Positions 2,076-33,762 of a stretch of DNA of 64,000 nucleotides are shown in pieces. A program made the position numbers and the translations under genes. Under the pieces are notes generated by a model. The model made no database searches. It saw only the letters and a program-made list of their open reading frames with translations, and was not told the origin of the DNA. Every line of letters starts with the position of its first letter. Positions within the stretch are counted from its first letter, which is position 1. Source of the DNA: Patescibacteria group bacterium (GTDB lineage: Bacteria > Patescibacteriota > Patescibacteriia > 2-01-FULL-39-33); assembly GCA_041649575.1 (NCBI GenBank), contig JBAZMW010000004.1, positions 21,687 through 85,686 on the forward strand, given 5' to 3'.

Positions 2076-4730
2076 CTATTTCAAACTCTGCAAATTATCT
2101 TTTAATTTTAACACTTTTTCCTGGGCCATGGCCAGTTTTTCCTTTTCCCCGTCTACCACTATTTTAGGAGCGTGGCTAATAAACTCCTGGCCAGCCAACT
2201 TAACCTCTAAATTTTTTATATATTTTTCTAACTCGCCAATCTCCTTATTTAAACGCTCTTGTTCTGCTACCCTATTAATTGTAACCGATAAATCCAAATA
2301 TATCTGTGCCTGGTTGGTTACGGCACCAAGACTACTAGCTGGCTTCTGGCTGATGTTGTCGGTGACAGTCAAAGATTCTAGACGAGCCAGACGCTTGATA
2401 ATAACCGCTTGCGACTCGAGCAATTCTTTTTGCCCACTGATAATTACCGCTTTCAATAATTTAGCTGGCTCAATTTTGTTTTCACTGCGTAAATTTCTAA
2501 TGGAAGTGATGATCTGTTTTATTAATTCAAAATCTTTATTCTTGGCCGGCCCGGCTTTAACCGCGGGCCAAGTTTCGACCATCAATAAACCGCTGTCAAA
2601 ATTATGCCAAAGCTCTTCGGTAATAAAGGGGCAGAAAGGATGCCAGAGCCGCAAAATATTTTGCAAGACATAAAGCAGAATTTCATCCTTATCACCCTCG
2701 ATTTTGGCAATCTCCAAATACCAATCGGCAAAACAATCCCAGGTAAATTCCTGCAGTTTTTCCGCAGCTAAAGAAAACTCATATTTATCCATCAAATGCT
2801 CAATTAAATGAGTTGTCGCCTCCAGTTCTTGCAAAATCCAATGGTCGGACAAGGTCTGGGCGGTTGGCTTGGCCGTAATTATTTTAATGTCATCGACTGA
2901 CTGCAAAATAAACCGAGAAATATTCCAAAGCTTATTAATAAAATTCCTGGCGCCAGCCACTTTCTCCTCGAAAAATCTCATATCATTACCCGGGGTCGTG
3001 CCTTTAAGTAAGCTAAGCCGCAGGGCATCGGTGCCGTATTTTTCTATAATCTCCAACGGGTCCAGCCCATTACCGGCCGATTTAGAAAACTTTTTGCCAT
3101 TTTTGTCACGTAACATGCCATGAATATAGACCTCCTTGAATGGGATATCGTCTAAAGCATAGGCGGACAAGAGAATCATCCGCGCCATCCAAAAAAATAA
3201 AATTTCATAACCCATCTGCATCCAGGAGGTAGGGTGAAATTTTTTTAGGTCCGCTGTCTGGTCGGGCCAGCCAAGGGTCGAGAAAGTCCAGGCGCCAGAG
3301 GAAAACCAGGTATCTAGGGTATCTTCGTCTTGTCTGATATTTTTACTCTGACATTTTGGACATTTTAACGGACTACCTTCGCTAAAAAATATTTCTTGGC
3401 AATCATCACAATACCAAACTGGTAAACGATGGCCCCACCAAATCTGACGTGAAATACACCAATCACGCAAATTATCAATCCAATGCAAATAAATACTTTG
3501 AAATCGGTTAGGTGTAATTTTGATAATTTTATCCTGATCGCCGCTGTGGCCCGTAGTAACCGCTTCACGCATTAAATCTTTCAAGCTCTGGTCGCGGCCA
3601 GTAATTTTTTTATTAACATCAACAAACCACTGATCCATCGGCAGGGCTTCGACAACATCTTTGAAACGATCGGAGGTACCGACGTTATGTTCGATTTCTT
3701 CTTCACCAACATAAAGGCCATTATCTTTAAGCCAGTTAACAAATTTATCCCGCGCCTCCAAAACCGTTAAACCCTCATAACCCGGACCAGCGGCCTTAAG
3801 CATCCGGCCATCACGGCCAATGACCGGTGTAATACCGATATCTTTGTTATTCTGATACATTTCAAAATCGATCTGGCTGTGAGCCGGTGTCACACCCACG
3901 GCGCCAGTGCCATAATTCATGTCAACATTCTTATCGCCAATGACAGTGATTGTCAGCGGCCGCTCGGCACCGACATCGACTGTGAATTTCTGGCCAATAA
4001 ATTTTTGGTATTTCCCATCATCGGGATGAACCGCTACCGCAGTGTCCCCCAGCTTGGTTTCTGGACGAGTGGTGGCAATGGTAATGGGAAAATCCTTGGA
4101 ATATCTAAAAGTATAGACCCTCGTCTTTTTTGTTTCATAAACCAGCTCGTCATCGGAACAAGTGCTTTGTCCCTTGACCGACCAGTTGACCACCCGATAA
4201 CCGCGATAAATCAAGCCATCATCAAACATCATCTTAAAAAGCTTATTAACAGCAGCCGACCTCTTATCGTCAAAAGTATAGGCCAAACGCGACCAGTCGC
4301 AAGAAGTGCCCATTTTTTTGATTTGACCAATGATGATGCTTTTGTGATTCTCTGCGAATTCGCGAATTCGCTTCAACAGTTCTTCACGTCCTAACTCTTG
4401 ACGCGGATTGGTAATGCCCTGTTTTTTCAGCTCGTCTTCGACCCTGGCTTGAGTGGCCACGGCGGCATGATCCGTGCCGGGAACTATTAAGGCGCGTTTG
4501 CCTTTCATCCGCTGATAACGAATCTCGATATCCATTAGAGAATTTTCAAAAGCGTGACCCAAGTGTAAAATACCCGTGACGTTGGGCGGCGGCATGGAAA
4601 TAACAAAAACCTCGGGACGATCACCCGGCAATTTGTCAGGATCAAAAAAACCGGAAGCTTCCCATTTTTGATAAATCTGGTCTTCGACTGTTGCGGCTTC
4701 GTAAGTTTTAGGTAATTCGATTTTGGCCAT
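2076..4730 (-). CDS. valS: valyl-tRNA synthetase
   Basis: 884 aa with PPPNVTGILHLGH (HIGH motif), KFSKSAGN (KMSKS motif), an editing domain and a C-terminal coiled coil. Confidence 0.9.
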   Translation of the reverse strand: MAKIELPKTYEAATVEDQIYQKWEASGFFDPDKLPGDRPEVFVISMPPPNVTGILHLGHAFENSLMDIEIRYQRMKGKRALIVPGTDHAAVATQARVEDELKKQGITNPRQELGREELLKRIREFAENHKSIIIGQIKKMGTSCDWSRLAYTFDDKRSAAVNKLFKMMFDDGLIYRGYRVVNWSVKGQSTCSDDELVYETKKTRVYTFRYSKDFPITIATTRPETKLGDTAVAVHPDDGKYQKFIGQKFTVDVGAERPLTITVIGDKNVDMNYGTGAVGVTPAHSQIDFEMYQNNKDIGITPVIGRDGRMLKAAGPGYEGLTVLEARDKFVNWLKDNGLYVGEEEIEHNVGTSDRFKDVVEALPMDQWFVDVNKKITGRDQSLKDLMREAVTTGHSGDQDKIIKITPNRFQSIYLHWIDNLRDWCISRQIWWGHRLPVWYCDDCQEIFFSEGSPLKCPKCQSKNIRQDEDTLDTWFSSGAWTFSTLGWPDQTADLKKFHPTSWMQMGYEILFFWMARMILLSAYALDDIPFKEVYIHGMLRDKNGKKFSKSAGNGLDPLEIIEKYGTDALRLSLLKGTTPGNDMRFFEEKVAGARNFINKLWNISRFILQSVDDIKIITAKPTAQTLSDHWILQELEATTHLIEHLMDKYEFSLAAEKLQEFTWDCFADWYLEIAKIEGDKDEILLYVLQNILRLWHPFCPFITEELWHNFDSGLLMVETWPAVKAGPAKNKDFELIKQIITSIRNLRSENKIEPAKLLKAVIISGQKELLESQAVIIKRLARLESLTVTDNISQKPASSLGAVTNQAQIYLDLSVTINRVAEQERLNKEIGELEKYIKNLEVKLAGQEFISHAPKIVVDGEKEKLAMAQEKVLKLKDNLQSLK

Positions 4731-4874
4731 GGAGATAAAGCTTTTGGAATGGTTTTATTTTACTTAATTTAACTTAATTTTTCAAGTTTTAAAAGCCCTG
4801 TCCGGCGTTTATTGACAATAAATGAAAATTTGGCTAAGATTAAATATTCAGTTAAATTATTATCCAAAACACTT

Positions 4875-6011
4875 ATGGCTCTTTCGGAGCTCCAGCAGAC
4901 GCAGGAACTGATCAGAAAAAACAAATCAATACTGATAATCTTCAAAAAAGACTGGTCGGGCGATGCCGCAGCCAGCTCCTTGGCTTTGGCGGAAACCCTA
5001 AGAAAACTGGATAAAGCGGTGGAAATCGTCTGTCAGGATTTTAAGCCGACAACCAGCCTTAATTTTTTGCCGTTGTCACAAATTAAAAACAGCCTGATCA
5101 ATCTGCAAAAATTTATCATCAGTATTAACACTTCGCAAACCCAGGTGGGTGAATTTTATTATGACCACCAGGAAAACCGCCTGAACATCTACTTAACGCC
5201 GCAGAACGGCCAACTGGAAGCCAAGGACGTCACCACTGCCATTTCCGATTATAAATATGATCTAATTTTTATCATTAATTCTCCGGACCTGGCTTCTTTA
5301 GGCGAGGCCTATGAAAGGCAGCCGGATTTCTTCTTCAATACTCCTAAAATAAATCTGGATCATTCCAACCGCAACGAATATTTTGGCGACGTCAATTTGG
5401 TCAATATCACTTCGGCCGCCAGCGCTGAAATAGCCTACGAGCTGATAAAAAGTCTGGGCGACAAGCTGATTGACGATAATATTGCCACCTATCTATTGGC
5501 GGGAATTATTTTTTCTACCAAAAATTTCAAAGTTTCCAATCTCACTCCCAAAACCTTAAGCATTGCCAGCTTGCTGGTACACTATGGGGCGCGGCGAGAA
5601 CAAATCATCCAAGCCATTTACCAAAATAAATTTTTATCGACCCTGAAGCTCTGGGGCCGAGTTTTATCAAGACTCAACAACGACTTAGACGATCGCCTGG
5701 TGTGGTCGAGCTTGTCGGTTCAGGACTTTCTGGAGACTGCCACTACGCCCGAGGAGATTTTAGACGTGGTGGAAGAGCTGATTGTCTCCATGCCCAAAAC
5801 GGATGTGGTGGTGCTCTTGCACGAGGGCCGGGACATAAACAAAAAAGAGGTCTGCTGTTTGGTTTACGCTGTCAAAAACGGCAATGCCCTCTTTCTTAGT
5901 AAAAGATTCGAGCCCAGCGGTAACAGTGAGATTGCTAAATTCTCTTTAAACAACCTTTCCTTGGCCGAAGCCGAGAGGCTGGTAATCGGTGAGATAAAAA
6001 GCAAGCTGTAA
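4875..6011 (+). CDS. DHH/DHHA1-like phosphoesterase family protein (divergent NrnA paralog; start uncertain, TTG at 4812 possible)
   Basis: Architecture resembles NrnA at 18157..19107, but the D-x-D, DHH and GGGH motifs are degenerate (DWSGDAAASSLAL, LDHSN). Confidence 0.45.
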   Translation: MALSELQQTQELIRKNKSILIIFKKDWSGDAAASSLALAETLRKLDKAVEIVCQDFKPTTSLNFLPLSQIKNSLINLQKFIISINTSQTQVGEFYYDHQENRLNIYLTPQNGQLEAKDVTTAISDYKYDLIFIINSPDLASLGEAYERQPDFFFNTPKINLDHSNRNEYFGDVNLVNITSAASAEIAYELIKSLGDKLIDDNIATYLLAGIIFSTKNFKVSNLTPKTLSIASLLVHYGARREQIIQAIYQNKFLSTLKLWGRVLSRLNNDLDDRLVWSSLSVQDFLETATTPEEILDVVEELIVSMPKTDVVVLLHEGRDINKKEVCCLVYAVKNGNALFLSKRFEPSGNSEIAKFSLNNLSLAEAERLVIGEIKSKL

Positions 6012-6079
6012 GCTAATCTTGAAAATTCGAAAAAAATAGGTTATATTAATAACACTGTTTATTAAAAATCGCTAGATAA

Positions 6080-6152
6080 GGGCCAGTAGCTCAGGGGTTA
6101 GAGCACCGCTCTTATAAAGCGGGGGTCGGTGGTTCAAATCCACCCTGGCCTA
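6080..6152 (+). tRNA. tRNA-Ile2-like with anticodon UAU (decodes AUA)
   Basis: 73-nt cloverleaf GGGCCAG/CTGGCCT; anticodon stem CCGCT/AGCGG, loop CUUAUAA; T-loop TTCAAAT; body resembles bacterial ileX but has T34 instead of C34. Confidence 0.7.
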
Positions 6153-6315
6153 CAAAAACAAATTGGAATTAAAAGTTAATTGTTTTTAAAAAAGTAAAGA
6201 CTGACATTAAAGTGGATTTGAAGGGCAGTAATGAGCCAAATCCCGCCACCGGCGGGATGAAGGCGAGACGCCCGCCAAATCCGAGCAAGCGCAGGATTTG
6301 GCGCTGCCCCGGACC

Positions 6316-6335
6316 CAAATCCACCCTGGCCTACA
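6316..6335 (+). repeat. 20-bp direct repeat of the 3' end of tRNA-Ile(UAU) (copy of 6135..6154)
   Basis: CAAATCCACCCTGGCCTACA occurs at both 6135-6154 and 6316-6335, flanking a 161-bp insert. Confidence 0.8.
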
Positions 6336-6342
6336 AGAATGA

Positions 6343-6416
6343 GGACGGCTAGCTCAGTTGGTTAGAGCACTATCTTGACGTGATAGGGGTCAGAGGTTCG
6401 AATCCTCTGCCGTCCA
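6343..6416 (+). tRNA. tRNA-Val (anticodon GAC)
   Basis: Acceptor GGACGGC/GCCGTCC, D-arm GCTCAGTTGGTTAGAGC, anticodon loop TTGACGT, T-arm AGAGGTTCGAATCCTCT. Confidence 0.85.
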
Positions 6417-6479
6417 TAACTTAAAAGTTCCCACTACTGGTGGGAGCTTTTACTTTAAGCCTGTTTAAAAAAAATAAAA

Positions 6480-6962
6480 CTAAATATTTCTCTCCAATAC
6501 TAAATCATAATCCTTAAACCCCTCTCTTCTGTAAAACCTGATTGCTCTAAAATTTTGAGCACTGGCGACGACACGAACTCTTTTAGCCTTCTTCAGCCGG
6601 CACCATTTAATAAATTCTTTAAATAATTTGCCTCCGATTCCCAGGCTACGGAATTTTTCAAGCACGAACATATTTTCGGCTTCTGCCAATTTAGATATTG
6701 TTCTATATTCTTCGGCCTCAACAATACCACCGACTAGATAACCAATAACTTTATTTTCTAAAACAGCTACTAAGGCACAGCCGCTCCTTATTCTTTTTTT
6801 GAAATACTTTTCACTAGGATCGCTAAGTGAATAGTCCTTATCAATGGTCTGATCAAACTCCGCATACTCTTTTAAACAAAGACGGTGATTTAAGTCTTGG
6901 ATGTCTTTAAAATCTTTAAGGGTGGCAAATTTAATTTTTGGTTTCATATATTTATCTGCCAA
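6480..6962 (-). CDS. GNAT family N-acetyltransferase
   Basis: 160 aa with acetyl-CoA binding motifs (VIGYLVGG ... RSLGIGGKLF ... FYRREGF). Confidence 0.75.
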   Translation of the reverse strand: MADKYMKPKIKFATLKDFKDIQDLNHRLCLKEYAEFDQTIDKDYSLSDPSEKYFKKRIRSGCALVAVLENKVIGYLVGGIVEAEEYRTISKLAEAENMFVLEKFRSLGIGGKLFKEFIKWCRLKKAKRVRVVASAQNFRAIRFYRREGFKDYDLVLERNI

Positions 6963-6997
6963 TTGACTAAAATTACTAGGCTGACTTTATTGAGCAA

Positions 6998-7140
6998 TAG
7001 GAGTGACGGTTATTTCTTGCCCGCGCATCTCGTTTGGACCACCTGAACAAGTCAGGCGGAACTGTTTTTAGCGGCTTACGGGGCACGAGATATACACCAC
7101 CCGCAATAACTAACCGTCACTCCATTTTACCTAATAAAAT
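6998..7140. repeat. 143-bp long hairpin element with perfect 13-bp terminal inverted repeats (MITE-like or structured sRNA)
   Basis: GGAGTGACGGTTA at 6998 pairs with TAACCGTCACTCC at 7128; internal second stem ATCTCGT/ACGAGAT; no ORF. Confidence 0.4.
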
Positions 7141-7265
7141 TTTAAATTTTCATCTTTGAGTTCTACATACGAGCTGGCTAAAATGACCAGCCAAATACAG
7201 TGTCAATTATAGTTGAATACGTCTCTAAAATCAAGACGATCCTGGTGTAATAAAAAAATAAAGGA

Positions 7266-7294
7266 TTGACTTTTTTATAAATTTTACGTAAAAT
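7266..7294 (+). promoter_or_regulatory. sigma70-type promoter (TTGACT-17-TAAAAT)
   Basis: TTGACTtttttataaattttacgTAAAAT lies just upstream of the small GC-rich gene. Confidence 0.55.
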
Positions 7295-7336
7295 AAACAA
7301 ACCATTGTCTCTAAACATGGCACAAGGAGAATGGAG

Positions 7337-7579
7337 ATGGAATTTGTTCCTTTCTATATCGACACCGACACCACTAATACCGGAGTTAGAGATTCTGAGC
7401 AATGGGCCCGAGTCGAGGCTGAGGAAAAGAGACTCCTGCCCAACGCCAGGTTATCGGTTACACAGGAGATACGTGGGTTACCAACTTTCGGCTTCGACAA
7501 CTGGAGAGGCTATACGGGGGAAACGCTCGGGGAGTGGGCGCGTAGGAGGGGAATGGACCTTTTCCCCGACCGATTCTAG
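7337..7579 (+). CDS. orphan small protein (80 aa), GC-rich relative to flanks; alternative start at 7331
   Basis: AAGGAG RBS 8 nt upstream of ATG; own promoter and terminator; about 52% GC against roughly 35% in the flanks; no recognisable domain. Confidence 0.45.
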   Translation: MEFVPFYIDTDTTNTGVRDSEQWARVEAEEKRLLPNARLSVTQEIRGLPTFGFDNWRGYTGETLGEWARRRGMDLFPDRF

Positions 7580-7601
7580 AAAGTCAATGACCTTTGATTC
7601 T

Positions 7602-7642
7602 GCCGTGACCGTGCACTTAGCGGTCACGGCGGTTGCTTTTAT
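7602..7642 (+). terminator. intrinsic terminator
   Basis: GCCGTGACCG-tgcacttag-CGGTCACGGC followed by GGTTGCTTTTAT. Confidence 0.65.
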
Positions 7643-7732
7643 GACAAAAAACTTTATCATAAAACAATCAAATTTAAAATAAAAAATTGGGAATTTAAAG
7701 GCTTTTTATGTTAGAATAAAGATAATAGTTGT

Positions 7733-9331
7733 ATGAAAATTAGCGTAGAAAAAAAATTACGAAACTGGCAACTAGAGGCGCTGAAATCGCCCGAGTTTGC
7801 TTTTGTGGAAAAGTTGACAAAAAAATTCCCCGAGGCGAAAGTTTACTTGGTGGGCGGTGCCGTCAGAGACCTGATTCTAGAGCGTGATACTAAGGATTTT
7901 GATTTTGTGGTGGCCAAAGTGCCGGCCAAGGATTTGGAAAAATTCCTTAGCTCTTTGGGCAAGGTCAATCTGGTTGGCAAAAGTTTTGGAGTATTTAAGT
8001 TTGTACCTAATAACGTCATCCCGAGCGAAGCCAGGGGAGAAGTGTGGGGATCCCGCGGGATTGCCACGTCGTCCGGTTCCGTTACGCGGAACCGGTCTCC
8101 TCGCAATGACATTATTTTTGAACCCTTCGATATCGCTCTGCCGCGCACCGAGCATGCGGGCATGAGCGGCGGCTACAGGGATTTCGAAGTGCAAAGCGAC
8201 CAAGACTTGCCAATCGAGGAAGATTTGTCACGCCGCGATTTTACTATTAATGCCCTGGCCTGGGACTTGAGAGAGAAAAAAATAATTGACGAGTTTGACG
8301 GACTAAAAGATTTGGAAAATAAAACTATCAAAGCGATTGGCAAACCGGAACAGAGATTCCAGGAGGATTATACCCGCCTGCTGCGCGCTATCAGGCTCTG
8401 CTGCCAACTGGATTTTATGATCGAGGCCCACACCCTGAAAACCATTCACGACAAAGCTCAAAAAATCGGCACCATTGCCAAAGAAAGAATTAATGAAGAG
8501 CTAGTCAAAATTGTCATGTCGAACAAAGCCGAGGACGGTTTTCGATTACTGCAAAAAATCGGGCTTTTAAAAATATTAATTCCAGAACTGGAGTCGACGG
8601 TTAACATCAGCCAGAATAAACATCATATTTACGACATTTTTGAACATAGCGTACGGGCGCTGGGAGCAGGCGCTCAAAGGAATTATTCGCTTTGGGTGCG
8701 GCTGGCGGCGCTACTGCATGACATTGGCAAGCCGCAAACAAAAGAGGGCGAAGGCCCCGACTCAACTTTTTACAACCACGACATCGTTGGAGCCAAAATC
8801 GCCAAAAATATTTTAAAACGACTAGATTTTTCCAATGAGACTATTAGCAAGGTGACGCATTTAGTGCGTTATCATATGTTTTATTATGCCCTGGATACGG
8901 TGAGCGACGCCGGAGTAAGGCGACTACTAGCGCGACTGGGCAAAGAAAATATTCAAGATTTCATTGATGTCAGAATCTGCGACCGGTTGGGCATGGGCCG
9001 GCCTAAGGCCAAACCCTGGAAGCTGATTGAGCTGGAACGCCGACTCAAGGAAGTGCAGCTCGATCCCATTACTCCCAAGATGCTCAAAATCAATGGCGAT
9101 GAGCTGATGAAAATTTTGAAAATCAAGCCGGGACCGCGAGTGGGCCTGATACTTAATGCCCTGCTGGGCGAGGTTTTGGAAGATCCCGAGAAAAACGATA
9201 AAAAATATTTGACCAAAAAAATGAAAGAGTTGGATAAATCGAAAGACGAAGAATTAAAAAAACTAAATCCGGATGTAAAATTTTACGAAGAAGAAAGGAA
9301 GAGGTTGCTACATTTCAATAAAGACAACTAA
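7733..9331 (+). CDS. cca: CCA-adding tRNA nucleotidyltransferase / poly(A) polymerase family with HD domain
   Basis: GGAVRD and RRDFTINA head motifs; HD domain (LLHDIGK); 532 aa; contains an in-frame 96-bp repeat insertion. Confidence 0.8.
   Translation: MKISVEKKLRNWQLEALKSPEFAFVEKLTKKFPEAKVYLVGGAVRDLILERDTKDFDFVVAKVPAKDLEKFLSSLGKVNLVGKSFGVFKFVPNNVIPSEARGEVWGSRGIATSSGSVTRNRSPRNDIIFEPFDIALPRTEHAGMSGGYRDFEVQSDQDLPIEEDLSRRDFTINALAWDLREKKIIDEFDGLKDLENKTIKAIGKPEQRFQEDYTRLLRAIRLCCQLDFMIEAHTLKTIHDKAQKIGTIAKERINEELVKIVMSNKAEDGFRLLQKIGLLKILIPELESTVNISQNKHHIYDIFEHSVRALGAGAQRNYSLWVRLAALLHDIGKPQTKEGEGPDSTFYNHDIVGAKIAKNILKRLDFSNETISKVTHLVRYHMFYYALDTVSDAGVRRLLARLGKENIQDFIDVRICDRLGMGRPKAKPWKLIELERRLKEVQLDPITPKMLKINGDELMKILKIKPGPRVGLILNALLGEVLEDPEKNDKKYLTKKMKELDKSKDEELKKLNPDVKFYEEERKRLLHFNKDN
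8035..8130 (+). mobile_element. MITE-like palindromic element inserted in frame in cca (32 codons)
   Basis: 5' GTCATCCCGAG and 3' CTCGCAATGAC terminal inverted repeats; internal 9-bp hairpin CCGGTTCCG/CGGAACCGG; about 62% GC; the 3' half recurs at 35581-35624 and 44431-44466. Confidence 0.65.
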
Positions 9332-9395
9332 AAAGCACGCGACTACTGCCCCGCGTGCCCAGGCTAAGCTGATGGAGTGAACGCCCAATGTATGA

Positions 9396-9680
9396 CTACT
9401 TCCCTAATAAATCACCTGCGCCATTCTCGCGCATGTACGCCTCGGCTCGTGCCGCATTTGGATCGATGCGGGCATAATCATAGACATCGTTGGCGCACCT
9501 ATCCACTTGATCACCAATGAAGGAAAAACGATTGAACCAACCCTTCTCGTCGAATCCTGACGGCCTGATGAACTGCACTACGTCGCCGCTGGGACTACTG
9601 CCAACCGGGCTTAGCAGAATATAGAACCGTCCGGATTCCAAGTCTGCGGCTGTCACTTGTTTTGCTGCTGTCCCCGCCAT
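9396..9680 (-). CDS. hypothetical protein (94 aa), GC-rich
   Basis: AAGGAGG RBS 7 nt upstream; adjacent to and co-oriented with 9693..10028; no recognisable domain. Confidence 0.45.
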   Translation of the reverse strand: MAGTAAKQVTAADLESGRFYILLSPVGSSPSGDVVQFIRPSGFDEKGWFNRFSFIGDQVDRCANDVYDYARIDPNAARAEAYMRENGAGDLLGK

Positions 9681-13916: not shown

Positions 13917-13940
13917 GGGGTTCGAATCCTGACGAGGGCG
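13917..13940 (+). repeat. duplicated 3' portion of tRNA-Arg (T-arm + acceptor 3' strand)
   Basis: GGGTTCGAATCCTGACGAGGGCGTT is identical to 13861-13885; the intervening spacers (13786-13811 and 13884-13916) are partly reverse-complementary. Confidence 0.7.
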
Positions 13941-14061
13941 TTACCGCGTGGGATGTTAGCTTCCGCCTCGGCTCGCTTTGTTCGCCAAGGCGAGACAGGC
14001 AGCTAGGCTACGGATCAGACTGGAAGAGTATGATAAACAATTTACATAAAACGAGTAATAT

Positions 14062-24367: not shown

Positions 24368-24485
24368 AACAGATAAAAATAGTCAATTTGATTTATCTCG
24401 CTAACCCGTTTAATTCCAGTTCTTTTCTATAACAAAAATAATCACCAAAAAGGTGATTATTTTTTGCTAAGCGGGTAACGGGAAT

Positions 24486-24633
24486 TACGCGTCGCTCCCT
24501 GCCTACCGGTAGGCAGGCGCTCCTTGCCCTGGGTTGGCAGCAGACCTGCCACCGGCAGGTCTGCTGACGTTCGACCTCATCACTTCGTGATTTGTCTCAC
24601 TGCCAACCCGTTCGATTCCCGTTAATTTCTGTT
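24486..24633 (-). repeat. 148-bp GC-rich hairpin-rich insert between tRNA-Gly and a duplicated copy of its 3' end
   Basis: 17-bp direct repeats AAGCGGGTAACGGGAAT at 24469-24485 and 24634-24650; insert holds palindromes CCTGCCTACCGGTAGGCAGG, CAGCAGACCTGCC-acc-GGCAGGTCTGCTG and GGGTTGGCAG/CTGCCAACCC. Confidence 0.65.
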
Positions 24634-24634: not shown

Positions 24635-24709
24635 AGCGGGTAACGGGAATCGAACCCGTATTTCCACCTTGGAAGGGTGGCATAATAACCATTATACTAT
24701 ACCCGCGCT
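24635..24709 (-). tRNA. tRNA-Gly (anticodon UCC)
   Basis: Minus strand: GCGGGTA ... CCACC-CTTCCAA-GGTGG ... ACGGGTTCGATTCCCGT-TACCCGC-T. Confidence 0.8.
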
Positions 24710-24723
24710 TATTTGCTTCTTGG

Positions 24724-24794
24724 TCGGGGTGCGGAGAATTGAACTCCGGCTACATGCACCCCATGCATGCGTACTACCGTTATACTACACCCCG
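24724..24794 (-). tRNA. tRNA-Pro (anticodon GGG)
   Basis: Minus strand: CGGGGTG-TA-GTATAACGGTAGTAC-G-CATGC-ATGGGGT-GCATG-TAGC-CGGAGTTCAATTCTCCG-CACCCCG-A. Confidence 0.8.
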
Positions 24795-24837
24795 TAAAAC
24801 TAATTTATTGTATACTTAATAAAAAATGTCTCGTTAT

Positions 24838-24880
24838 GTCGGGGTGACAGGACTTGAACCTGCGACCTCTTACTCCTTCA
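24838..24880 (-). pseudogene. tRNA-like 3' fragment (T-arm + acceptor 3' strand), 3' half of an outer tRNA-like gene enclosing tRNA-Pro(UGG)
   Basis: Minus strand: TGAAGGAGTAAGAGGTC-GCAGGTTCAAGTCCTGT-CACCCCG-ACA; no D or anticodon arm immediately upstream. Confidence 0.55.
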
Positions 24881-24896
24881 CCCTGTTAAATAATTG

Positions 24897-24970
24897 TCGG
24901 AGTAGTGGGATTTGAACCCACGATCTCCTGCTCCCAAAGCAGGCGCGATAGCCAGCTTCGCTATACTCCG
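24897..24970 (-). tRNA. tRNA-Pro (anticodon UGG)
   Basis: Minus strand: CGGAGTA-TA-GCGAAGCTGGCTATCGC-G-CCTGC-TTTGGGA-GCAGG-AGATC-GTGGGTTCAAATCCCAC-TACTCCG-A. Confidence 0.8.
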
Positions 24971-24979
24971 GTAATTTAA

Positions 24980-25021
24980 CAGGGCGAGAAGCAAGCGCTC
25001 TAGCCAACTGAGCTACACCCC
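24980..25021 (-). pseudogene. tRNA-like 5' half (acceptor + D-arm + 5' strand of a long helix), 5' half of the outer tRNA-like gene
   Basis: Minus strand: GGGGTGT-AG-CTCAGTTGGCTAGAGC-G-CTTGCTTCTCG-CCCTG; acceptor GGGGTGT is complementary to CACCCC at 24843-24848. Confidence 0.55.
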
Positions 25022-25088
25022 GTATTAAAACAAACAATCAACAACGATGAGCGCATTGTCAATTGCAAATCGTTAACTGTTTTGAGTA

Positions 25089-25160
25089 TGCCGAGGGCGA
25101 GAATCGGACTCGCGACACAAAGATTTTCAGTCTTCTGCTCTACCACTGAGCTACCTCGGC
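25089..25160 (-). tRNA. tRNA-Phe (anticodon GAA)
   Basis: Minus strand: GCCGAGG-TA-GCTCAGTGGTAGAGC-A-GAAGA-CTGAAAA-TCTTT-GTGTC-GCGAGTCCGATTCTCGC-CCTCGGC-A. Confidence 0.85.
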
Positions 25161-25235
25161 TCTCACCTCGCCGTAGCCGATAGGCGAAAGCGGGTTAAAC
25201 TTTTATCAGTCCGCCTTCGCTAAAGCTACGGCGGA

Positions 25236-25300
25236 CACTGTGCGCATACCTGGATTTGAAGTCTGGACCTTCCCGATATATCGGGACGCTCTAATTAAAT
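25236..25300 (-). pseudogene. partial tRNA-Ile-like copy (D-arm end, variant anticodon arm, T-arm, acceptor 3' strand)
   Basis: Minus strand: TTAGAGCG-TCCCGATATATCGGGA-AGGTC-CAGACTTCAAATCCAGG-TATGCGC-A; matches the 3' two-thirds of tRNA-Ile(GAU) except the anticodon arm. Confidence 0.55.
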
Positions 25301-25527
25301 CCTCTAGATACTTTCGCGACTTCATTCTTTTTAAACAACTCTCTCTTCTGATTGCCTCTTTTTTGTCCTCGTATTCTTCATGATAGACTAATTTTTAAGG
25401 CTTTTTATTGCTGGTGTACCGGCCTGTAGAGCTATTATGCTGGCGAATTCTCTTTTCCAAATCAGAAGAGTAACCAATATAGTAGCTACCATCTCTTTCG
25501 CTTTGCAAGATATAAAGGCAATGCATG

Positions 25528-25601
25528 TGCGCATACCTGGATTTGAACCAGGGACCTCGTCATTATCAGTGACGCGCTCTAACCAACTGAGCTATATGCG
25601 C
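25528..25601 (-). tRNA. tRNA-Ile (anticodon GAU)
   Basis: Minus strand: GCGCATA-TA-GCTCAGTTGGTTAGAGC-G-CGTCA-CTGATAA-TGACG-AGGTC-CCTGGTTCAAATCCAGG-TATGCGC-A. Confidence 0.85.
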
Positions 25602-25604
25602 TTA

Positions 25605-25731
25605 ATTTTAAACCTGGGACCTTCCCGATATATCGGGACGCTCTACCAACTTTTCAATCCCGACTTGTCGGGGGGAGCCCCGCCCGACTGAACGGCGTTC
25701 AGCCGTTCGGGCGGGTATATGCGCTTAAATT
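25605..25731 (-). pseudogene. degenerate tRNA-Ile-like copy carrying a 66-nt GC-rich palindromic insert in the D-arm
   Basis: Minus strand: GCGCATATA + CCCGCCCGAACGGCTGAACGCCGTTCAGTCGGGCGGGG... + TTGGTAGAGCG + TCCCGATATATCGGGA + AGGTCCCAGG; shares the variant anticodon arm with 25236-25300. Confidence 0.5.
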
Positions 25732-25841
25732 TACTTAAATAATATAACAAAAAAAATTGATTTTGGCAAGATGAAAAAAATAGGCCTGACGACGGCCTAC
25801 AATGCCTGTGGAGCTTCCCAAGACTGGGGCTCTGTCATGTA

Positions 25842-26234
25842 TCAGAAAGGTACTGGCTGGCACCTGGATTGTTCCAGGCCTTCTTTTAAGGCGCTGGCCA
25901 GTTCATCTCTACTACCCCAATAGCAGACCGCATCCAGCCCATTTGGCTCTGTCAATGGAGCACGAGTCACCCCAATTAAGAACGGCCTGGGCCGACAACG
26001 CCGAAAATGTTTGACAACTTCTTCCGCGCCAGGATGTTGAAAGTCGACTATCAGGATTTGCGGCCGCATTACGCCTTGTAATTCCTTGCTGTTGACGACA
26101 CTGGTGATGGTGACCTGGGGATTGCTTCCATACCAATTAACACCAAGATCGTCAATGGCCCAGTCTTTGGCGCCTCGCCAGAGCTCCAAAGCCGATTGGG
26201 TATTGACGGCCAAAAAGGTTACCAGTGTGGGCAT
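25842..26234 (-). CDS. hypothetical protein (130 aa), GC-rich, own promoter; weak paralog of the next gene
   Basis: RBS GGGAGG; promoter TTGTCA-17-TAATAA; palindrome TTAACCAAGCGGTTAA between the -10 and the RBS; shares an ILIVDF/ILFIDF block with 26378..26893. Confidence 0.45.
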   Translation of the reverse strand: MPTLVTFLAVNTQSALELWRGAKDWAIDDLGVNWYGSNPQVTITSVVNSKELQGVMRPQILIVDFQHPGAEEVVKHFRRCRPRPFLIGVTRAPLTEPNGLDAVCYWGSRDELASALKEGLEQSRCQPVPF

Positions 26235-26377
26235 GGTTAGATCCTCCCTTAAAGAACAGCTCGACCAAATTAACCGCTTGGTTAATTATTAACATGCCAT
26301 AAAAAATTTGACAAGAAAAAGCCGTGCGCGAGGCAACGGCTCAAATCGCTCCCAATCTGTCGGAAGGGAGCGGCGTA

Positions 26378-26893
26378 CTAGAAGGGAATAATGTCGCTGA
26401 TGGCGTCTTCCAATCCTTGACTGGTCCTGGCGCAGAGGTCGAATTCCTCACAAACCATCGGGTCGTTGGGATAATGATCGTGATAAGGAACGACTACAAT
26501 ATGGAGCGCCGGGTTGTTGCGCAAGAAAGGCGGCAACGCCTCATCGGCCTCTGTGTGATCGTTACAAATCACGACGATGAACGGTTCGAACTCGACTAAG
26601 CGCCAAAGCTGCGAGTCACGTATGTCAGCAAACATGACCCTAAAATCGCCGTAACGATAACGACGGGTGCCAAGCCACAGCTCTTTCATCTGCGTCGGCT
26701 CAAAATCGATGAACAGAATGCGTGTGCCGTTTCCTTCAAGCACCTCGACTTCGTACTCCATTGACTCAACTGGTGGCGGGATCAAACGCTCCTGCGGCGG
26801 TGGCGCTACTGGTTCCTCCTCCCGAGTCTCCAGCCAATCCAAAAAGTCTGCGCCACATTCTGCCAGGGTTGCCGGCGCCGTTGACATGGCCAT
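26378..26893 (-). CDS. hypothetical protein (171 aa), GC-rich
   Basis: AAGGAG RBS 8 nt upstream of ATG; lies downstream of the 16S terminator; no recognisable domain. Confidence 0.45.
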   Translation of the reverse strand: MAMSTAPATLAECGADFLDWLETREEEPVAPPPQERLIPPPVESMEYEVEVLEGNGTRILFIDFEPTQMKELWLGTRRYRYGDFRVMFADIRDSQLWRLVEFEPFIVVICNDHTEADEALPPFLRNNPALHIVVVPYHDHYPNDPMVCEEFDLCARTSQGLEDAISDIIPF

Positions 26894-26960
26894 TCTCCTT
26901 CTGTTGCATACTAAAGTGCTTTATAAAAGAATTTAAAACAAAATACCAAAAAAAGCAAAT

Positions 26961-26985
26961 ACAAAAACCCCGCCCAAAGGCGGGG
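26961..26985 (-). terminator. intrinsic terminator downstream of 16S rRNA
   Basis: Minus strand: CCCCGCC-tttg-GGCGGGGTTTTTGT. Confidence 0.6.
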
Positions 26986-27098
26986 CAGTTGTTGTGACAA
27001 CTAAAAAGCGACAAAAAGTTTGTAAGCCCTCTTCCCGCCTAATGGCGGGACGACCTATCATAGATGTGACTTTTAAAAAGTCACATCAATTTCTCCCT

Positions 27099-28577
<1,479 letters not shown>

Positions 28578-28869
28578 AAAAAATTTGCAACTAGATTACG
28601 GCCAGTTGCCAACCGTATGAAACATTGCTTCGCTAGAAAGCGAAGATGCTTTGTTCAAAGAAAAATAACTTGGGCTTACGCTTTTTGTCACTTTTTAGTT
28701 GTCAAATTGCCTTTTTCCTCCGCTTTCAAGCGGAAAGAAAAAACAGAGGGATCCGATTTGGCGAACTCTCGTTTCAGGCGAGAATTCTGTCAGATACCAC
28801 TGTTTTCCCTCAAAATCTAAATTTTAGGAATTTTTTAAGAATGTTTTGTGCTTATTAGTCTGCCCTATT

Positions 28870-29771: not shown

Positions 29772-30140
29772 GGTAATTTTATTATATACTAATTTATTAT
29801 TCTTTCATAACTGAAAAAGTTTTTTAAATCGTGAACCTCTTATTTGCTTACTTTTTCATATCTTAGAAAAGAAAAAGCTAACAAAAAGAAAAGTCGCGAG
29901 CTATTTGATAAATTCAGACAAAATCTGGCGCCAGTTTCGCTAGGCCATAAAGTCGCTACGCTCCAGTTATGGCCTTTCCGCCTAAAAGGCGGAACCGCTC
30001 AACTGACTTGATTTTGTGGCTGAATTTTCAAGCGCTCGCAACAGCTATTTCTAAACCAAATTTTCATGGGCTCGCAGAAATAATCCTGAAAACAAAACCC
30101 TCCCGGTTCATCGGGAAGGTTTTGTTTTATTGTGATGGTT

Positions 30141-30530
30141 TTAGATGGTTAAATCATCTACCACATCGGTATCAACCTGGTCTCTTCTGGGCCGAGGGCC
30201 GCGGGAACCTTCCGGTTCATTGATCTTCAAGTTGACACGAGCATTGTTTTTGGCGCCAACGATTTTAGCTAGAGTTCTGATGGCGCGAGCGGTCTGTCCT
30301 TGTTTGCCAATGACATAGCCGATATCGCCCGAGTTGACGTTCAAGGTGAGTAAAACACCGCGCTCGTCAACTGTTCTGTCGACTTTAACATCGTTAGGAT
30401 TGGCGACAATCTCTTTAACGATCATCTCGACGAACTTTTGATCTTTTTCCATACTTACTGTCGTGTTATTTCTTAAAAGTTCTAAAACTTCTTGAGTTGC
30501 TGACCTAGTGGCAACTGCTTTTTCGTCCAT
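30141..30530 (-). CDS. KH-domain RNA-binding protein (YlqC/UPF0109-like)
   Basis: KH motif VIGKQGQTARAIRTL; lies between rpsP and trmD as in the rpsP-KH-rimM-trmD operon, but rimM is absent. Confidence 0.7.
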   Translation of the reverse strand: MDEKAVATRSATQEVLELLRNNTTVSMEKDQKFVEMIVKEIVANPNDVKVDRTVDERGVLLTLNVNSGDIGYVIGKQGQTARAIRTLAKIVGAKNNARVNLKINEPEGSRGPRPRRDQVDTDVVDDLTI

Positions 30531-30638
30531 TTTTCTTTTAAGGACTAACCTCACTTTAACAGAAGGTAGAGAGCCTGTCAAGGATTTACCAAAACCCCGC
30601 CTGAAAGGCGGGGTTTAAAGACTAATGCTAGATTAATT

Positions 30639-31064
30639 TTAGGCGCTGGGAGTGTCTGCTGAAGCGGCTTCTGCCGGCGCGGCTGTTTCGGCTTTCTCTT
30701 GAGCCTGCTTGGCGGCTTCGGCTTCGGCTTTCTTGGCGGCGTCGATAGTGGCTTTCTCTTGAGCCTTTTGAGCAGCTAGGGCCGCCTGTTTTTTCTTGCC
30801 GGGCTGCGACTTGGAGGCTCTGACTTTCTTGTCTTTGATAATCCCTTGGCTGACCAGTAGATTGTGAACCGTCGAGGTAGCTTGAGCTCCTTGCTTTAGC
30901 CAATACAAAATTCTGTCATTTTTTATCTGACTTACTTTGGTCTTAGGGTTATAAGAACCCAGGTTTTCTAAAAATTTACCCCAGGGATCACGGGTTTTTT
31001 CGGTGACAATCAGCCGATAAAGCGGCTGTTTTTTCTTGCCAACGCGAGATAGTCTGATTGATAA
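30639..31064 (-). CDS. rpsP: 30S ribosomal protein S16 with Ala/Lys-rich C-terminal extension
   Basis: MLSIRLSRVGKKKQPLYRLIV is the S16 signature. Confidence 0.85.
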   Translation of the reverse strand, partial: LSIRLSRVGKKKQPLYRLIVTEKTRDPWGKFLENLGSYNPKTKVSQIKNDRILYWLKQGAQATSTVHNLLVSQGIIKDKKVRASKSQPGKKKQAALAAQKAQEKATIDAAKKAEAEAAKQAQEKAETAAPAEAASADTPSA

Positions 31065-31288
31065 CATTATTTGTTGCTGATTAATTCTTAATTTCTGAGC
31101 ATTGAACGGTAAAGTTATGCTACTATATTTTACAAAAAAAGTCAATTAACCTTATTGGATTAATATATTTTATAACCAGCTTTTACAAAAAAAGGGCCAG
31201 CGATACGAGATCACTGTCCCTTGGAAAATCGCGGCCGAAGGCCAAGGATTCAATCCAATGGCCAAGCGGCCGAAAACCGAAGTCCAGA

Positions 31289-32251
31289 CTACCCGAGGCA
31301 GAACACCGACGCCGAATAGTCGTCGCTGGCATACGACAGATAGTCGGTGTAGTCGAAGTTCGCATAGGAATCGTAGGCGAGGAAGCGGAGCGAGTAGGAC
31401 TGCCACTGAAGAGCCGGGCAGCGCACTATTGGTGTCTTGGCGTCTCGGCAGAGCTCCTTGGCATAGGCCATGTAAGCCACTGCCGTGTCCAAGCCGCCGC
31501 CCAAGAGCATCCATTCGGGAATCTGGGCGGACAGTTCATGCCCGACGAAGGTCTCGCGACAAGCGTCGACGCTGTAACCGCCGAAAGGCAGAAGCGTGAC
31601 GCCGACAACCGGTTCTTTGGCCAAGGCGGCGAGCAGACACTCGTGCCGACTGCCGGCTACGATGCTGACCTCGCCGGCCAAGTCGGTTTCACGGTAGTTC
31701 GTGAACTTCCTGCCCTCGGCCTCGAAGGCTTCCTCATAAGCGCTCCTCACCCCGTCGACAAAAAGCTTCAAGGTGGCGCCGTAGCCACCTTTGTCCTCCG
31801 GCAGAATCGTGCCCGCTGGCAGAACAGTCGGCAGCCAAATGCCTTTGACGGCATTGGCCGTGCGAGGATCGCCCGCCAGCCTGGTGATAGTGGCCTTGGC
31901 TCGTACTTCGAATTCCTCGGCCGACGGCAAGCTGAGCGCCTCGGCTTTGACTCGCAGTCCGATGGCCAGATGCCGACGGACGCGCTCGAGGATCTCGCCG
32001 TAGTTGATCGAGGGTTGGTTGACGTAATACGCGCCAGCGTCGCAGAACGCAGCTTTGAGTCCGGGAAACGGAATGAAGCGGCTGTTCTTGTCGAACAGCT
32101 TACGGACGGTCTCCTTGATCTCCGCGGTCATTTCGTGACGCAGCAGCGCCTTGACGACATTGACGCCGCCAAGCTGGTTGCCAAGCGCCACCCAGTGGGT
32201 ATGTGGCAGGTCGTCCAGTGTTTCCAGTTGATCAATGTTAAAGTCCTTCAT
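31289..32251 (-). CDS. hypothetical protein D (320 aa) of GC-rich island
   Basis: RBS AAAGGAG; strong promoter TTGACA-17-TATAAT at 32363..32335; about 60% GC; no recognisable domain. Confidence 0.5.
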   Translation of the reverse strand: MKDFNIDQLETLDDLPHTHWVALGNQLGGVNVVKALLRHEMTAEIKETVRKLFDKNSRFIPFPGLKAAFCDAGAYYVNQPSINYGEILERVRRHLAIGLRVKAEALSLPSAEEFEVRAKATITRLAGDPRTANAVKGIWLPTVLPAGTILPEDKGGYGATLKLFVDGVRSAYEEAFEAEGRKFTNYRETDLAGEVSIVAGSRHECLLAALAKEPVVGVTLLPFGGYSVDACRETFVGHELSAQIPEWMLLGGGLDTAVAYMAYAKELCRDAKTPIVRCPALQWQSYSLRFLAYDSYANFDYTDYLSYASDDYSASVFCLG

Positions 32252-32334
32252 CTTGCGCTCCTTTCAGCCCATGGCCGAAATGGCTTTTCCCCTACCCGAG
32301 GATTGGGAACAGTCCTACGCAGGACCATCAGACT

Positions 32335-32363
32335 ATTATACTAAATAAAAAATAATCTGTCAA
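32335..32363 (-). promoter_or_regulatory. consensus sigma70 promoter (TTGACA-17-TATAAT) on minus strand
   Basis: Minus strand: TTGACAgattattttttatttagTATAAT in the AT-rich spacer upstream of gene D. Confidence 0.6.
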
Positions 32364-32520
32364 TACTAACAAATTATTTAAAGTTAAATAAAAACTTCCT
32401 CATCTGTCCGGCCAAGCTTCTTGAATGAGATAGAAACTATCTCAAACAAGAAGAAGAGAGAGTTTGGCCGGACGAATGAAGAAGCTTTAAAAGTATTCCT
32501 CAAAACTTGTAAAAAAGATT

Positions 32521-32569
32521 TGCAAGTTTAGTTGGAAGGAGAAGCTGACAAACCACATCAGCTTCTCCC
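32521..32569. repeat. island repeat, short copy 3
   Basis: TGCAAGTTTAGTTGGAAGGAGAAGCTGA-caaaccaca-TCAGCTTCTCC: 11-bp perfect hairpin plus the CCAGTTGGAAGGAG-like core. Confidence 0.6.
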
Positions 32570-32593
32570 AAAACCATCTACCGATCAAGGCCG

Positions 32594-33451
32594 CTAGGCC
32601 TTGGCGATGACGGCGCGAGTTGCCTCAACCGCCGCCACGACGTCGGCCAGCATCATGCGCTGACCGCGGGGACTGCCGGCGATGCCCGCGTGCCCGCCGG
32701 CCGCCTCGCCCCAAAGCCCCTGCACGATCTCTCGTGCCGAGACTCCGGGGATCGGGTCGGCGATAGACACTGTCACCGCACCGGTGACTGTGTTGAAGGC
32801 GACAACAGCTTTCGCCAAGTCGCCTTCCGGGTCGACGTACAGATGGCTGACAAACGTGTCCGCCACCCGCACTGCCACCCCGCCGCCAGCCTCGACGAAC
32901 GATTGCGCATTCAGCGCGACCTCCGCCGAGCGGAACGCCTCGCCCGCCGCGAGAAGTTCCGGGTCGTCAGCGCAAATGCGCTCAACGACCCTGACGGCCT
33001 CCATCACCTGCTCGGTGACTTCGGCCGCGCTGCCGTCGCGCGGGGGCAGGCAGCGGTGACCGTTGCTCCACGCCCAGAAAGCGTAGAGCCGGACGATGTC
33101 GGCTGGCTCGGCGCCGGCTTGGCCTAGCTTGTGCGGACCGTTGAGGTCCACAAAAGCTGCCAGGAGCCAGAATCCCGGCGTCTCGGGCTTGCGACCGAGA
33201 ACGGCCGCACAGCCGCCGACGGAATCGAGATCAAGGTGGGAAAGTCCCACCGCCTCGACTTCACCAGCCGCGCCGTTGTCGGCGAGGCAGGGGGCGGGGT
33301 TGCCCGCCCGCGGCCCGTGATGGGCCAGGGTTGCGACGGACCCGGCGACACACTCGTCGCCGAATTCCGCCTCAACCGAAGCGGTCAGGCCGAAGGGGGC
33401 GAGGACGGCGGCCAATGCGGCCGCATGGTTTGAAATAAAAAACTTCGTCAT
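32594..33451 (-). CDS. hypothetical protein C (285 aa), about 68% GC; faint DHH/DHHA1-like motifs (HLDLDSVGG ... AAGGHAGIAGSP)
   Basis: RBS AGGAGA 7 nt upstream of ATG; longest frame in the region; the motif resemblance is weak and unverified. Confidence 0.45.
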   Translation of the reverse strand: MTKFFISNHAAALAAVLAPFGLTASVEAEFGDECVAGSVATLAHHGPRAGNPAPCLADNGAAGEVEAVGLSHLDLDSVGGCAAVLGRKPETPGFWLLAAFVDLNGPHKLGQAGAEPADIVRLYAFWAWSNGHRCLPPRDGSAAEVTEQVMEAVRVVERICADDPELLAAGEAFRSAEVALNAQSFVEAGGGVAVRVADTFVSHLYVDPEGDLAKAVVAFNTVTGAVTVSIADPIPGVSAREIVQGLWGEAAGGHAGIAGSPRGQRMMLADVVAAVEATRAVIAKA

Positions 33452-33724: not shown

Positions 33725-33762
33725 AGATTAAGGCCTAACACACAAGGTCTTTCTGGCGTGAC

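Follow-up and report, generated by a model that had tools for sequence, protein, structure and literature searches.

In bacteria, AUA is canonically read as isoleucine by tRNA-Ile2, whose genomic CAU anticodon is converted by TilS to LAU, with lysidine in place of the cytidine. Lysidine synthesis is regarded as near-universal and essential in bacteria, and a genomically encoded tRNA-Ile(UAU) is mentioned as an oddity of a handful of genera. The tRNAscan-SE 2.0 survey found tRNA-Ile(UAU) replacing tRNA-Ile2(CAU) in 17 bacterial genomes, all of them Bifidobacterium, Mycoplasma or Neorickettsia (PMC8450103), and a 2026 preprint still terms the bacterial occurrences "rare cases". In Mycoplasma mobile, U34 is unmodified, the isoleucyl-tRNA synthetase (IleRS) carries Arg865 where Escherichia coli has Trp905, and the ribosome limits misreading of AUG (PMC3575796). 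Bifidobacterium and Neorickettsia have a eukaryote-type IleRS (Taniguchi et al. 2013, PMC3575796), and a Bacillus subtilis tilS-deletion strain lives on an unmodified UAU tRNA whose binding to AUG is weak (Kohrer et al. 2014, PMC3919564). Here we analyzed a 64,000-nt stretch of a Patescibacteria group genome (contig JBAZMW010000004.1, positions 21,687 to 85,686), referred to below as the window, which carries a tRNA gene with a genomic UAU anticodon at positions 6080-6152. We conclude that it is very probably a functional chromosomal tRNA-Ile gene that would decode AUA. The gene and its anticodon are as follows:

6080..6152, + strand: tRNA-Ile(UAU) gene, 73 nt (ARAGORN, Rfam, orthologues in 24 genomes, covariation)
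6113..6115, + strand: anticodon TAT (U34 A35 U36), within the loop C32-U33-U34-A35-U36-A37-A38 at 6111-6117 (read directly, ARAGORN, alignment)

The full sequence of the gene (6080-6152, + strand) is GGGCCAGTAGCTCAGGGGTTAGAGCACCGCTCTTATAAAGCGGGGGTCGGTGGTTCAAATCCACCCTGGCCTA. Divided into arms, it reads GGGCCAG UA GCUC AGGGGUUA GAGC A CCGCU CUUAUAA AGCGG GGGUC GGUGG UUCAAAU CCACC CUGGCCU A, which places U34 at window position 6113 and the discriminator A73 at 6152. ARAGORN, run on the window, called a tRNA-Ile with anticodon (tat) at 6080-6153, and the Rfam tRNA model matched 6080-6152 over its full length with 71.4 bits (gathering score 29; E 1.3e-13). All four stems are completely paired, with no mismatched stem pair. 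An original prediction, made from the sequence letters, had placed a tRNA with a genomic UAU anticodon at exactly these coordinates, and direct reading, ARAGORN and Rfam agree with it on both position and anticodon.

The features expected of an isoleucine tRNA are present, namely A73, G3-C70, C4-G69, U12-A23, A37 and A38, and charging with isoleucine is predicted from them. G3-C70 points to an Ile and not a Met tRNA, and the pairs C4-G69 and C5-G68 are common in tRNA-Ile(CAT) and are TilS determinants in E. coli (Silva et al. 2006, PMC1635315). The window gene has G3-C70 and not the Met-type C3-G70, and the family of related genes described below does not conserve the C29-G41 element of E. coli. 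Further Ile identity criteria are reportedly to be found in Nureki et al. 1994.

Relatives were collected by a protein search with the window's valyl-tRNA synthetase (ValRS), taking one genome per species of the Genome Taxonomy Database; no match was at the species level. The best relatives, at 63-71% ValRS identity, are metagenome-assembled genomes labeled Candidatus Buchananbacteria or Patescibacteria group. Some third-party annotation records labeled "uncultured Gammaproteobacteria" clearly belong to the same group. ARAGORN calls in the 6 kb upstream of ValRS, at 80 loci of other species, returned tRNA-Ile(tat) at 24 loci, with tRNA-Val(gac) adjacent in all but one. The 24 carriers range from 54 to 71% in ValRS identity to the window and bear labels that include Buchananbacteria, Parcubacteria and Patescibacteria group. 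Their assembly prefixes are JBAXTU01, JBAZBX01, JBAYJM01, CAIVNC01, CAZEKG01, CAIOLF01, JBAZQS01, JAKQDP01, CAZHYS01, CAZNIV01, CAYLUK01, MHIM01, JAPLYG01, JBDRDI01, CAZHZE01, JAQVNC01, JBAZFW01, CAYSKV01, LBWY01, JACPHD01, JAUSGE01, CAIPBY01, JAZDFM01 and JBAYJR01. A CAT anticodon was found at the tRNA-Ile position upstream of ValRS in none of the loci examined. As judged from these loci, tRNA-Ile(UAU) is what members of a Patescibacteria clade (Candidatus Buchananbacteria and neighboring Parcubacteria-type lineages) normally carry, and not a mutation of a single genome.

This comparison also bears on whether the true base at position 34 could be C, with a sequencing or assembly error having disguised an ordinary tRNA-Ile2(CAU). 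Such an error is a general possibility in any metagenome assembly, and nothing more speaks for it. In a second assembly of the same organism, the Logan contig SRR8542065_331159 covers window positions 3375-6125 with 0 mismatches in 2751 nt, including the CTTATAA of the anticodon loop and thus T34, and another Logan contig is identical to window positions 6122-9447. The Logan assembly may derive from the same reads as the ENA metagenome assembly that contains the window (ERZ27247363, 132.9-kb contig k141_497544), and the comparison with relatives, in which all 24 orthologous genes carry TAT in genomes from independent studies, is the stronger evidence. Because the second assembly is identical and the 24 orthologues carry TAT, we reject sequencing error, to which we would give next to no credence.

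We further scored a family alignment of 21 distinct tRNA-Ile(UAU) sequences against the cloverleaf. Standard pairs occupied 99.3% of the 441 stem cells, compared to 82% in a shuffled control and 22-43% in slid controls. Both-sided (compensatory) changes were seen in 13 of the 21 pairs, including all five of the anticodon stem and six of the seven of the acceptor stem, and the covariation score of 0.49 compared with 0.14 in shuffles (0 of 500 reached it) and at most 0.10 in the slid controls. No variation was seen among the 21 sequences at positions 32-38 (CUUAUAA), at A73, in the D-stem with its U12-A23 pair, or over most of the T-arm, while G3-C70 and C4-G69 were each kept in 20 members. C5-G68 was found in 13 of the 21, including the window's subgroup, and the other eight have G5-C68 or A5-U68.

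These data make it very improbable that the gene is a pseudogene, or that a tRNA of some other isotype happens to have a UAU anticodon here. What could suggest decay is the first acceptor pair, a G1-U72 wobble atop the stem, together with the decayed tRNA copies that lie nearby. The wobble is unusual though conserved, the window gene sharing it with nine relatives (10 of the 21 distinct sequences), with G1-C72 in the remainder. The decayed copies in this genome look different, being truncated and stuffed with hairpins, whereas the gene at 6080-6152 gives a full-length Rfam match of 71 bits with stems free of mismatches. All four stems have been kept by compensatory evolution, and the anticodon loop and Ile identity positions are invariant; it is this covariation and the conserved identity positions that lead us to regard both readings as very unlikely. 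The original prediction had named sequencing error, pseudogene and another isotype as the ways in which it could fail, and conservation and covariation close off all three. Its assignment to the Ile type is likewise borne out by identity features that are invariant or kept in 20 of 21 family members.

The original prediction also claimed that the body of the tRNA specifically resembles tRNA-Ile2, and this found no support as stated. Four family members were 0.67-0.80 identical to all classes compared, with no separation among them: Ile2-like CAU tRNAs (from contigs L210 and L211), Patescibacteria tRNA-Ile(GAU), tRNA-Val, and E. coli ileX, ileT and metT, the E. coli references being approximate. 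The Ile2-like, Ile1(GAU), Met and Val types thus score alike, and C5-G68 is kept in only 13 of the 21 sequences. Pairwise identity, falling in the same 0.67-0.80 range for every class, was discarded as uninformative about ancestry. A metagenome scan for CAU tRNAs directly upstream of tRNA-Val(GAC) gave 30 matches, most of them Met tRNAs, initiator or elongator, that belong to unrelated clusters. In one of the 30, the short, CPR-looking (candidate phyla radiation) contig L210, an Ile2-like CAU tRNA lies 5 nt upstream of tRNA-Val(GAC), the only such case; L211 carries an Ile2-like CAU tRNA that is not adjacent to tRNA-Val(GAC). The adjacency in L210 gives a weak hint that an Ile2 gene in this position may have been the ancestor of tRNA-Ile(UAU). 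In the case of the M. mobile tRNA-Ile(UAU), descent from tRNA-Ile(GAU) was favored (Silva et al. 2006, PMC1635315).

The codon that this tRNA would serve is in regular use. Of the 1156 Ile codons in 41 non-overlapping open reading frames (ORFs) of the window, which total 15,434 codons, 195 (17%) are AUA, or 12.6 per 1000 codons overall; the original prediction had pointed to AUA usage as a check, and the outcome is in its favor. In an alignment of 75 orthologues, the 8 AUA positions of ValRS align with I in 42%, L in 20% and V in 13%, not with Met, and its AUG positions align with M in 66%. Judging from these alignments, in which the ValRS test comprises only 8 codons, AUA is used and read as isoleucine in this organism.

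How does this gene compare with the described systems? The genomic CAT that TilS would convert to LAU is not found, T34 being present in the window gene and in all 24 orthologues. The gene shares with canonical tRNA-Ile2 the assignment of AUA to isoleucine and the elements G3-C70, C4-G69, A37, A38 and A73, as well as C5-G68 in the window's subgroup, but its position 34 is T, not C; TilS would therefore be left without a substrate, and the decoding chemistry would differ. Closest in kind is tRNA-Ile2(UAU) of M. mobile (PMC3575796, PMC1635315), with a genomic UAU, lysidine-free reading of AUA, a reduced genome and substantial use of AUA. For M. mobile, experiments have shown that tilS is absent, that U34 is unmodified, that IleRS is adapted through Arg865 and that the ribosome rejects AUG, whereas the present comparison is one of gene sequences. 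M. mobile is also a single species in a genus that otherwise has tilS, whereas tRNA-Ile(UAU) is shared here by 25 or more species-level genomes from one Patescibacteria clade. The "tRNA-Ile3" of Bifidobacterium and Neorickettsia (PMC8450103) is a further parallel, in which UAU replaces CAU and which indicates that the trait can be fixed at the genus level, although these bacteria belong to other phyla and have the eukaryote-type IleRS. In the nomenclature of tRNAscan-SE, the window gene would be a tRNA-Ile3(UAU) as well.

Two other comparisons are more distant. The B. subtilis suppressor tRNA1-Ile(UAU) is likewise a UAU-bearing Ile tRNA, and it supports growth unmodified, reading AUA well and AUG weakly (PMC3919564); it arose by a laboratory G34-to-T mutation of the tRNA-Ile1 gene, whereas the gene described here is natural and long conserved. 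The tRNA-Ile(UAU) of certain archaea (Nanoarchaeum, Korarchaeum) and of the eukaryotic cytosol also uses a genomic UAU for AUA, in lineages that lack an enzyme modifying C34, but these are other domains with different identity rules and synthetases, and the eukaryotic anticodon is pseudouridylated. The searchable literature linking lysidine, tilS or the AUA codon to CPR or Patescibacteria yielded nothing relevant. The mechanism is thus already known, of the M. mobile type, and its fixation in a CPR clade appears to be unreported. The original prediction that a genomic UAU implies an alternative AUA-decoding strategy agrees with our analysis, which predicts direct, lysidine-independent reading from the anticodon.

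The features through which the tRNA would be expressed, matured and complemented are the following:

6019..6047, + strand: sigma-70-like promoter candidate (TTGAAA, 17-nt spacer, TATATT; 10/12 matches), a consensus match only
6343..6416, + strand: tRNA-Val(GAC), whose pairing with tRNA-Ile(UAU) is conserved in relatives (ARAGORN, Rfam, relatives' loci)
6429..6445, no strand assigned: terminator-like hairpin after tRNA-Val(GAC), likely the end of the Ile-Val transcription unit, a consensus match only
7733..9331, + strand: CCA-adding enzyme gene (Pfam PolyA_pol, PolyA_pol_RNAbd, HD, tRNA_NucTran2_2)
25527..25601, - strand: tRNA-Ile(GAU), the AUU/AUC decoder of the same organism (ARAGORN, Rfam)

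The promoter candidate ends 32 nt upstream of tRNA-Ile(UAU), which would probably be co-transcribed with tRNA-Val(GAC) from near 6019-6047. The gene does not encode CCA (CAA comes after A73), and a CCA-adding enzyme is therefore needed; the gene for one lies 1.6 kb downstream, and its product would add CCA once the transcript has been processed. The mature tRNA would then be charged with isoleucine by IleRS and would read AUA through U34-A pairing, making the conversion of cytidine to lysidine unnecessary, while AUU and AUC would be left to tRNA-Ile(GAU). Decoding specific to AUA, with no harmful misreading of AUG, could be secured by the ribosome, as in M. mobile, or by some modification of U34.

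We then considered the possibility that tRNA-Ile(UAU) is an accessory tRNA of a phage or other mobile element, outside the core decoding set. A scan of IMG/VR with a pattern of the D-arm plus CTTATAA (matches L002-L121) found a predicted tRNA-Ile(tat) on at least 114 viral contigs among the 120 matches listed, and such tRNAs are therefore common on viral contigs. The claim in the original prediction that a genomic UAU is rare in bacteria thus matches what published surveys say, but does not hold for this lineage, in which it is the norm, or for viral contigs. An insertion scar lies directly after the gene, and in relatives we found remnants of a different tRNA-Ile allele beside the intact gene (L133, L139, L144) and GIY-YIG nuclease genes abutting it (L144, L197), all of which would fit mobility.

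The neighbors of the gene, however, are housekeeping genes, with no integrase or phage genes nearby. Pfam and Rfam identified TyrRS, ValRS, a DHH protein, the CCA-adding enzyme, an RluD-like protein, RNase III, IF-2 and RNase Y in the window, which also holds a 16S rRNA gene, components of type IV pili, TrmD, PolA, SMC, YidC and dnaA/dnaN. The Ile(UAU)-Val(GAC) pair stays beside ValRS down to 54% ValRS identity, and this conserved chromosomal synteny argues against a phage origin. The mobile elements at these loci appear to remodel a resident gene and not to deliver a foreign one. Taken together, these observations make an accessory origin improbable.

The scar itself comprises the following features:

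6135..6155, + strand: 21-nt exact direct repeat, copy 1 (CAAATCCACCCTGGCCTACAA), from the T-loop to the tRNA 3′ end plus 3 nt
6316..6336, + strand: 21-nt repeat, copy 2, an orphan tRNA-Ile 3′ end 181 nt downstream of copy 1
6212..6324, + strand: GC-rich structured insert, whose closing stem GUGGAUUUG/CAAAUCCAC reuses T-arm sequence

Inside the insert lies the hairpin TCCCGCCACCGGCGGGA (6241-6257), an instance of the motif TCCCG..CGGGA, and the insert as a whole folds at -58.8 kcal/mol (z = -5.5). Its sequence is identical in the Logan assembly, and an Rfam search of 6154-6340 gave no family matches. The insert is probably the scar of a tRNA-associated insertion element. Related traces are found at other tRNAs. 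We compared 105 tRNAs from the window and from the loci of relatives, and for 15 of them a stretch of 12-14 nt from the gene's own 5′ or 3′ end recurs exactly no more than 400 nt away; four of the 15 belong to the window (Ile-UAU, Arg-UCG, Gly-UCC and Ile-GAU). The TCCCG..CGGGA motif is enriched near tRNAs (7 of 29 occurrences versus 5.1% expected, p = 5e-4), and in the best-preserved disabled copies (window tRNA-Ile(GAU), L135 and L241) a palindromic hairpin of this form stands in place of the anticodon arm. This pattern of scars and copies bears on the history of the locus and not on the function of tRNA-Ile(UAU).

Beside intact tRNA-Ile(UAU) genes, L133 and L139 hold a Buchananbacteria-type acceptor fragment, and L144 holds a truncated tRNA-Ile copy of a different allele with a palindromized anticodon arm. 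These remnants suggest repeated replacement of the allele at this locus. Elsewhere in the window, a 3′ copy of tRNA-Arg(UCG) lies 35 nt after its gene (13919-13942), and one of tRNA-Gly(UCC) about 150 nt after its gene (about 24466-24490, - strand). Some 100 nt ahead of the intact tRNA-Lys(CUU) gene, a fragment of its 5′ end (GGGATGTTAGCT) is joined to a hairpin module, CCGCC..GGCGAGACAGGCAG (13950-14002). In relatives, the module consists of tRNA nt 1-12/13 (..TAGCTC), then CCGCC..hairpin..GGCG(A/G)G(A/G)CA(A/G)GCAG and an AT-rich spacer, followed by the intact tRNA; we counted ten instances in six genomes plus the window (clusters L132, L133, L135, L141, L144, L171 and L197), three of them in tandem in L135. 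The intact tRNA-Ile(GAU) gene is immediately preceded by a full-length disabled copy (25602-25735, - strand), which has GC-rich hairpins after nt 9 and nt 13 and a palindrome replacing the anticodon arm.

Small nuclease genes accompany these tRNAs. A GIY-YIG nuclease pseudogene (25514-25240, - strand; PF01541, E 5e-17) starts one base after tRNA-Ile(GAU). Its reading frame contains a TAA codon at a position that is Trp in relatives, and the pseudogene ends in a partial, disabled copy of this tRNA. One and the same 16-nt palindrome, TCCCGATATATCGGGA, stands on both sides of this tRNA-plus-nuclease unit (25271-25286 and 25623-25638). Intact GIY-YIG genes abut tRNA-Ile(UAU) in L144 (3983-4060 region) and L197 (4534-4617 region), and another abuts tRNA-Ser(CGA) on the window's own contig. 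Small single-domain GIY-YIG genes (∼80-100 aa) were found within 0-177 nt of tRNA genes in L144, L197, L204 (16255-16613) and L241-L245. Homologues were checked in eight places. In four of these the nuclease gene follows tRNA-Asp(GTC), and a disabled, partial copy of that tRNA comes next. The small gene of SegB, a GIY-YIG homing endonuclease of phage T4, sits within the phage tRNA cluster, and the enzyme cleaves the tRNA gene region and drives its preferential inheritance (PMC2330249). It is the nearest described system, although the present putative nuclease genes lie in cellular genomes and are flanked by disabled partial tRNA copies and palindromic hairpins.

Whether tRNA-Ile(UAU) is the only AUA decoder of this organism is a separate question. 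The window and both 10-kb flanks (∼84 kb) were searched with Pfam on 30 window ORFs, the SGGxDS motif, ARAGORN and the gene tables of the flanks, and contained no TilS, PP-loop (SGGxDS) protein, IleRS or CAU tRNA. BLAST for class-I synthetase paralogues as IleRS candidates found no IleRS in the reachable sequence. The Patescibacteria loci (81 loci, 1.06 Mb in total) likewise contained no TilS, no IleRS and no CAU elongator-type tRNA, the single CAT tRNA there being an initiator, and the 80 loci of relatives contained no SGGxDS PP-loop protein. Two candidates were dropped. One was a decayed CAU tRNA in the 366 nt that separate tRNA-Ile(GAU) from tRNA-Phe; this gap holds the GIY-YIG pseudogene, and the CAT tRNA found at the corresponding place in L162 is an initiator. 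The other was a 766-aa GNAT protein (37114-39414) as a TmcA-like tRNA-Met acetyltransferase, for which only generic GNAT domains match.

Besides the G1-U72 wobble, several points weigh against the reading of this gene as a functional, AUA-decoding tRNA-Ile(UAU), or as the sole decoder. Five of the closest ValRS loci (L122, L124 and L127-L129) have no tRNA pair within 6 kb, and the Ile-Val synteny is therefore not universal. Expression, aminoacylation and the state of U34 are predictions from sequence. The ∼84 kb seen belong to a genome that is probably near 1 Mb, too little to claim the loss of tilS, and tilS and a CAU-type tRNA-Ile2 could lie elsewhere in it. No IleRS was found in the sequence searched; by analogy, the enzyme would be either of the bacterial type with the Trp905 equivalent replaced, or eukaryote-like.

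It is accordingly quite possible that the system is redundant, with the UAU tRNA coexisting with tilS and tRNA-Ile2(CAU) encoded elsewhere and no loss of the lysidine pathway. Bacteria with both decoders have been described and proposed as an intermediate stage (Taniguchi et al. 2013, PMC3575796), and the inspected part of the contig is only ∼84 kb. Duplicate decoding systems are, on the other hand, unlikely to persist clade-wide in very small, streamlined genomes, and the Patescibacteria loci, as negative and partial data, offered neither a CAU elongator-type tRNA nor an SGGxDS PP-loop protein. Because the genomes are streamlined and UAU is fixed across the clade, we lean toward the view that tRNA-Ile(UAU) is the only AUA decoder and that tilS and tRNA-Ile2(CAU) have been lost. 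The original prediction, too, had named the loss of tilS as a possibility.

A broader proposal can be put forward only tentatively, and we consider it rather doubtful as a whole. A large CPR clade may have abandoned TilS and lysidine, relying for fidelity on a lineage-specific adaptation of IleRS or the ribosome, or on an undescribed U34 modification, while GIY-YIG cassettes that target tRNA genes turn over its tRNA-Ile alleles, leaving hairpin-stuffed partial copies behind. A conserved tRNA-Ile(UAU) in a CPR clade would in itself widen the known range of the lysidine-free solution. With at least 25 tRNA variants, and presumably IleRS variants, evolving together, it would offer a natural series in which to study how AUA is distinguished from AUG. 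An annotation pipeline built around a CAU-type tRNA-Ile2 would mistakenly rate such genomes as being without an AUA decoder.

We also noted features of the window outside the tRNA-Ile(UAU) locus. Downstream of the 16S rRNA gene (27101-28583, - strand) come tRNA-Ile(GAU), Phe, Pro, Pro and Gly (region 24635-28583), and neither tRNA-Ala nor 23S rRNA is present anywhere in the window. Between the 16S gene and tRNA-Ile(GAU) lie ∼1.5 kb with two small ORFs (25842-26234 and 26378-26893). The G+C content is raised at 30000-36000 (up to 0.59 versus ∼0.44 elsewhere), in a region that may be a foreign island and whose ORFs at 31289-32251, 32594-33451 and 33763-34569 have no Pfam match. The dnaA and dnaN genes (51005-53810) adjoin a change in the sign of the GC skew near 52-54 kb, and this is therefore probably the region of the replication origin.

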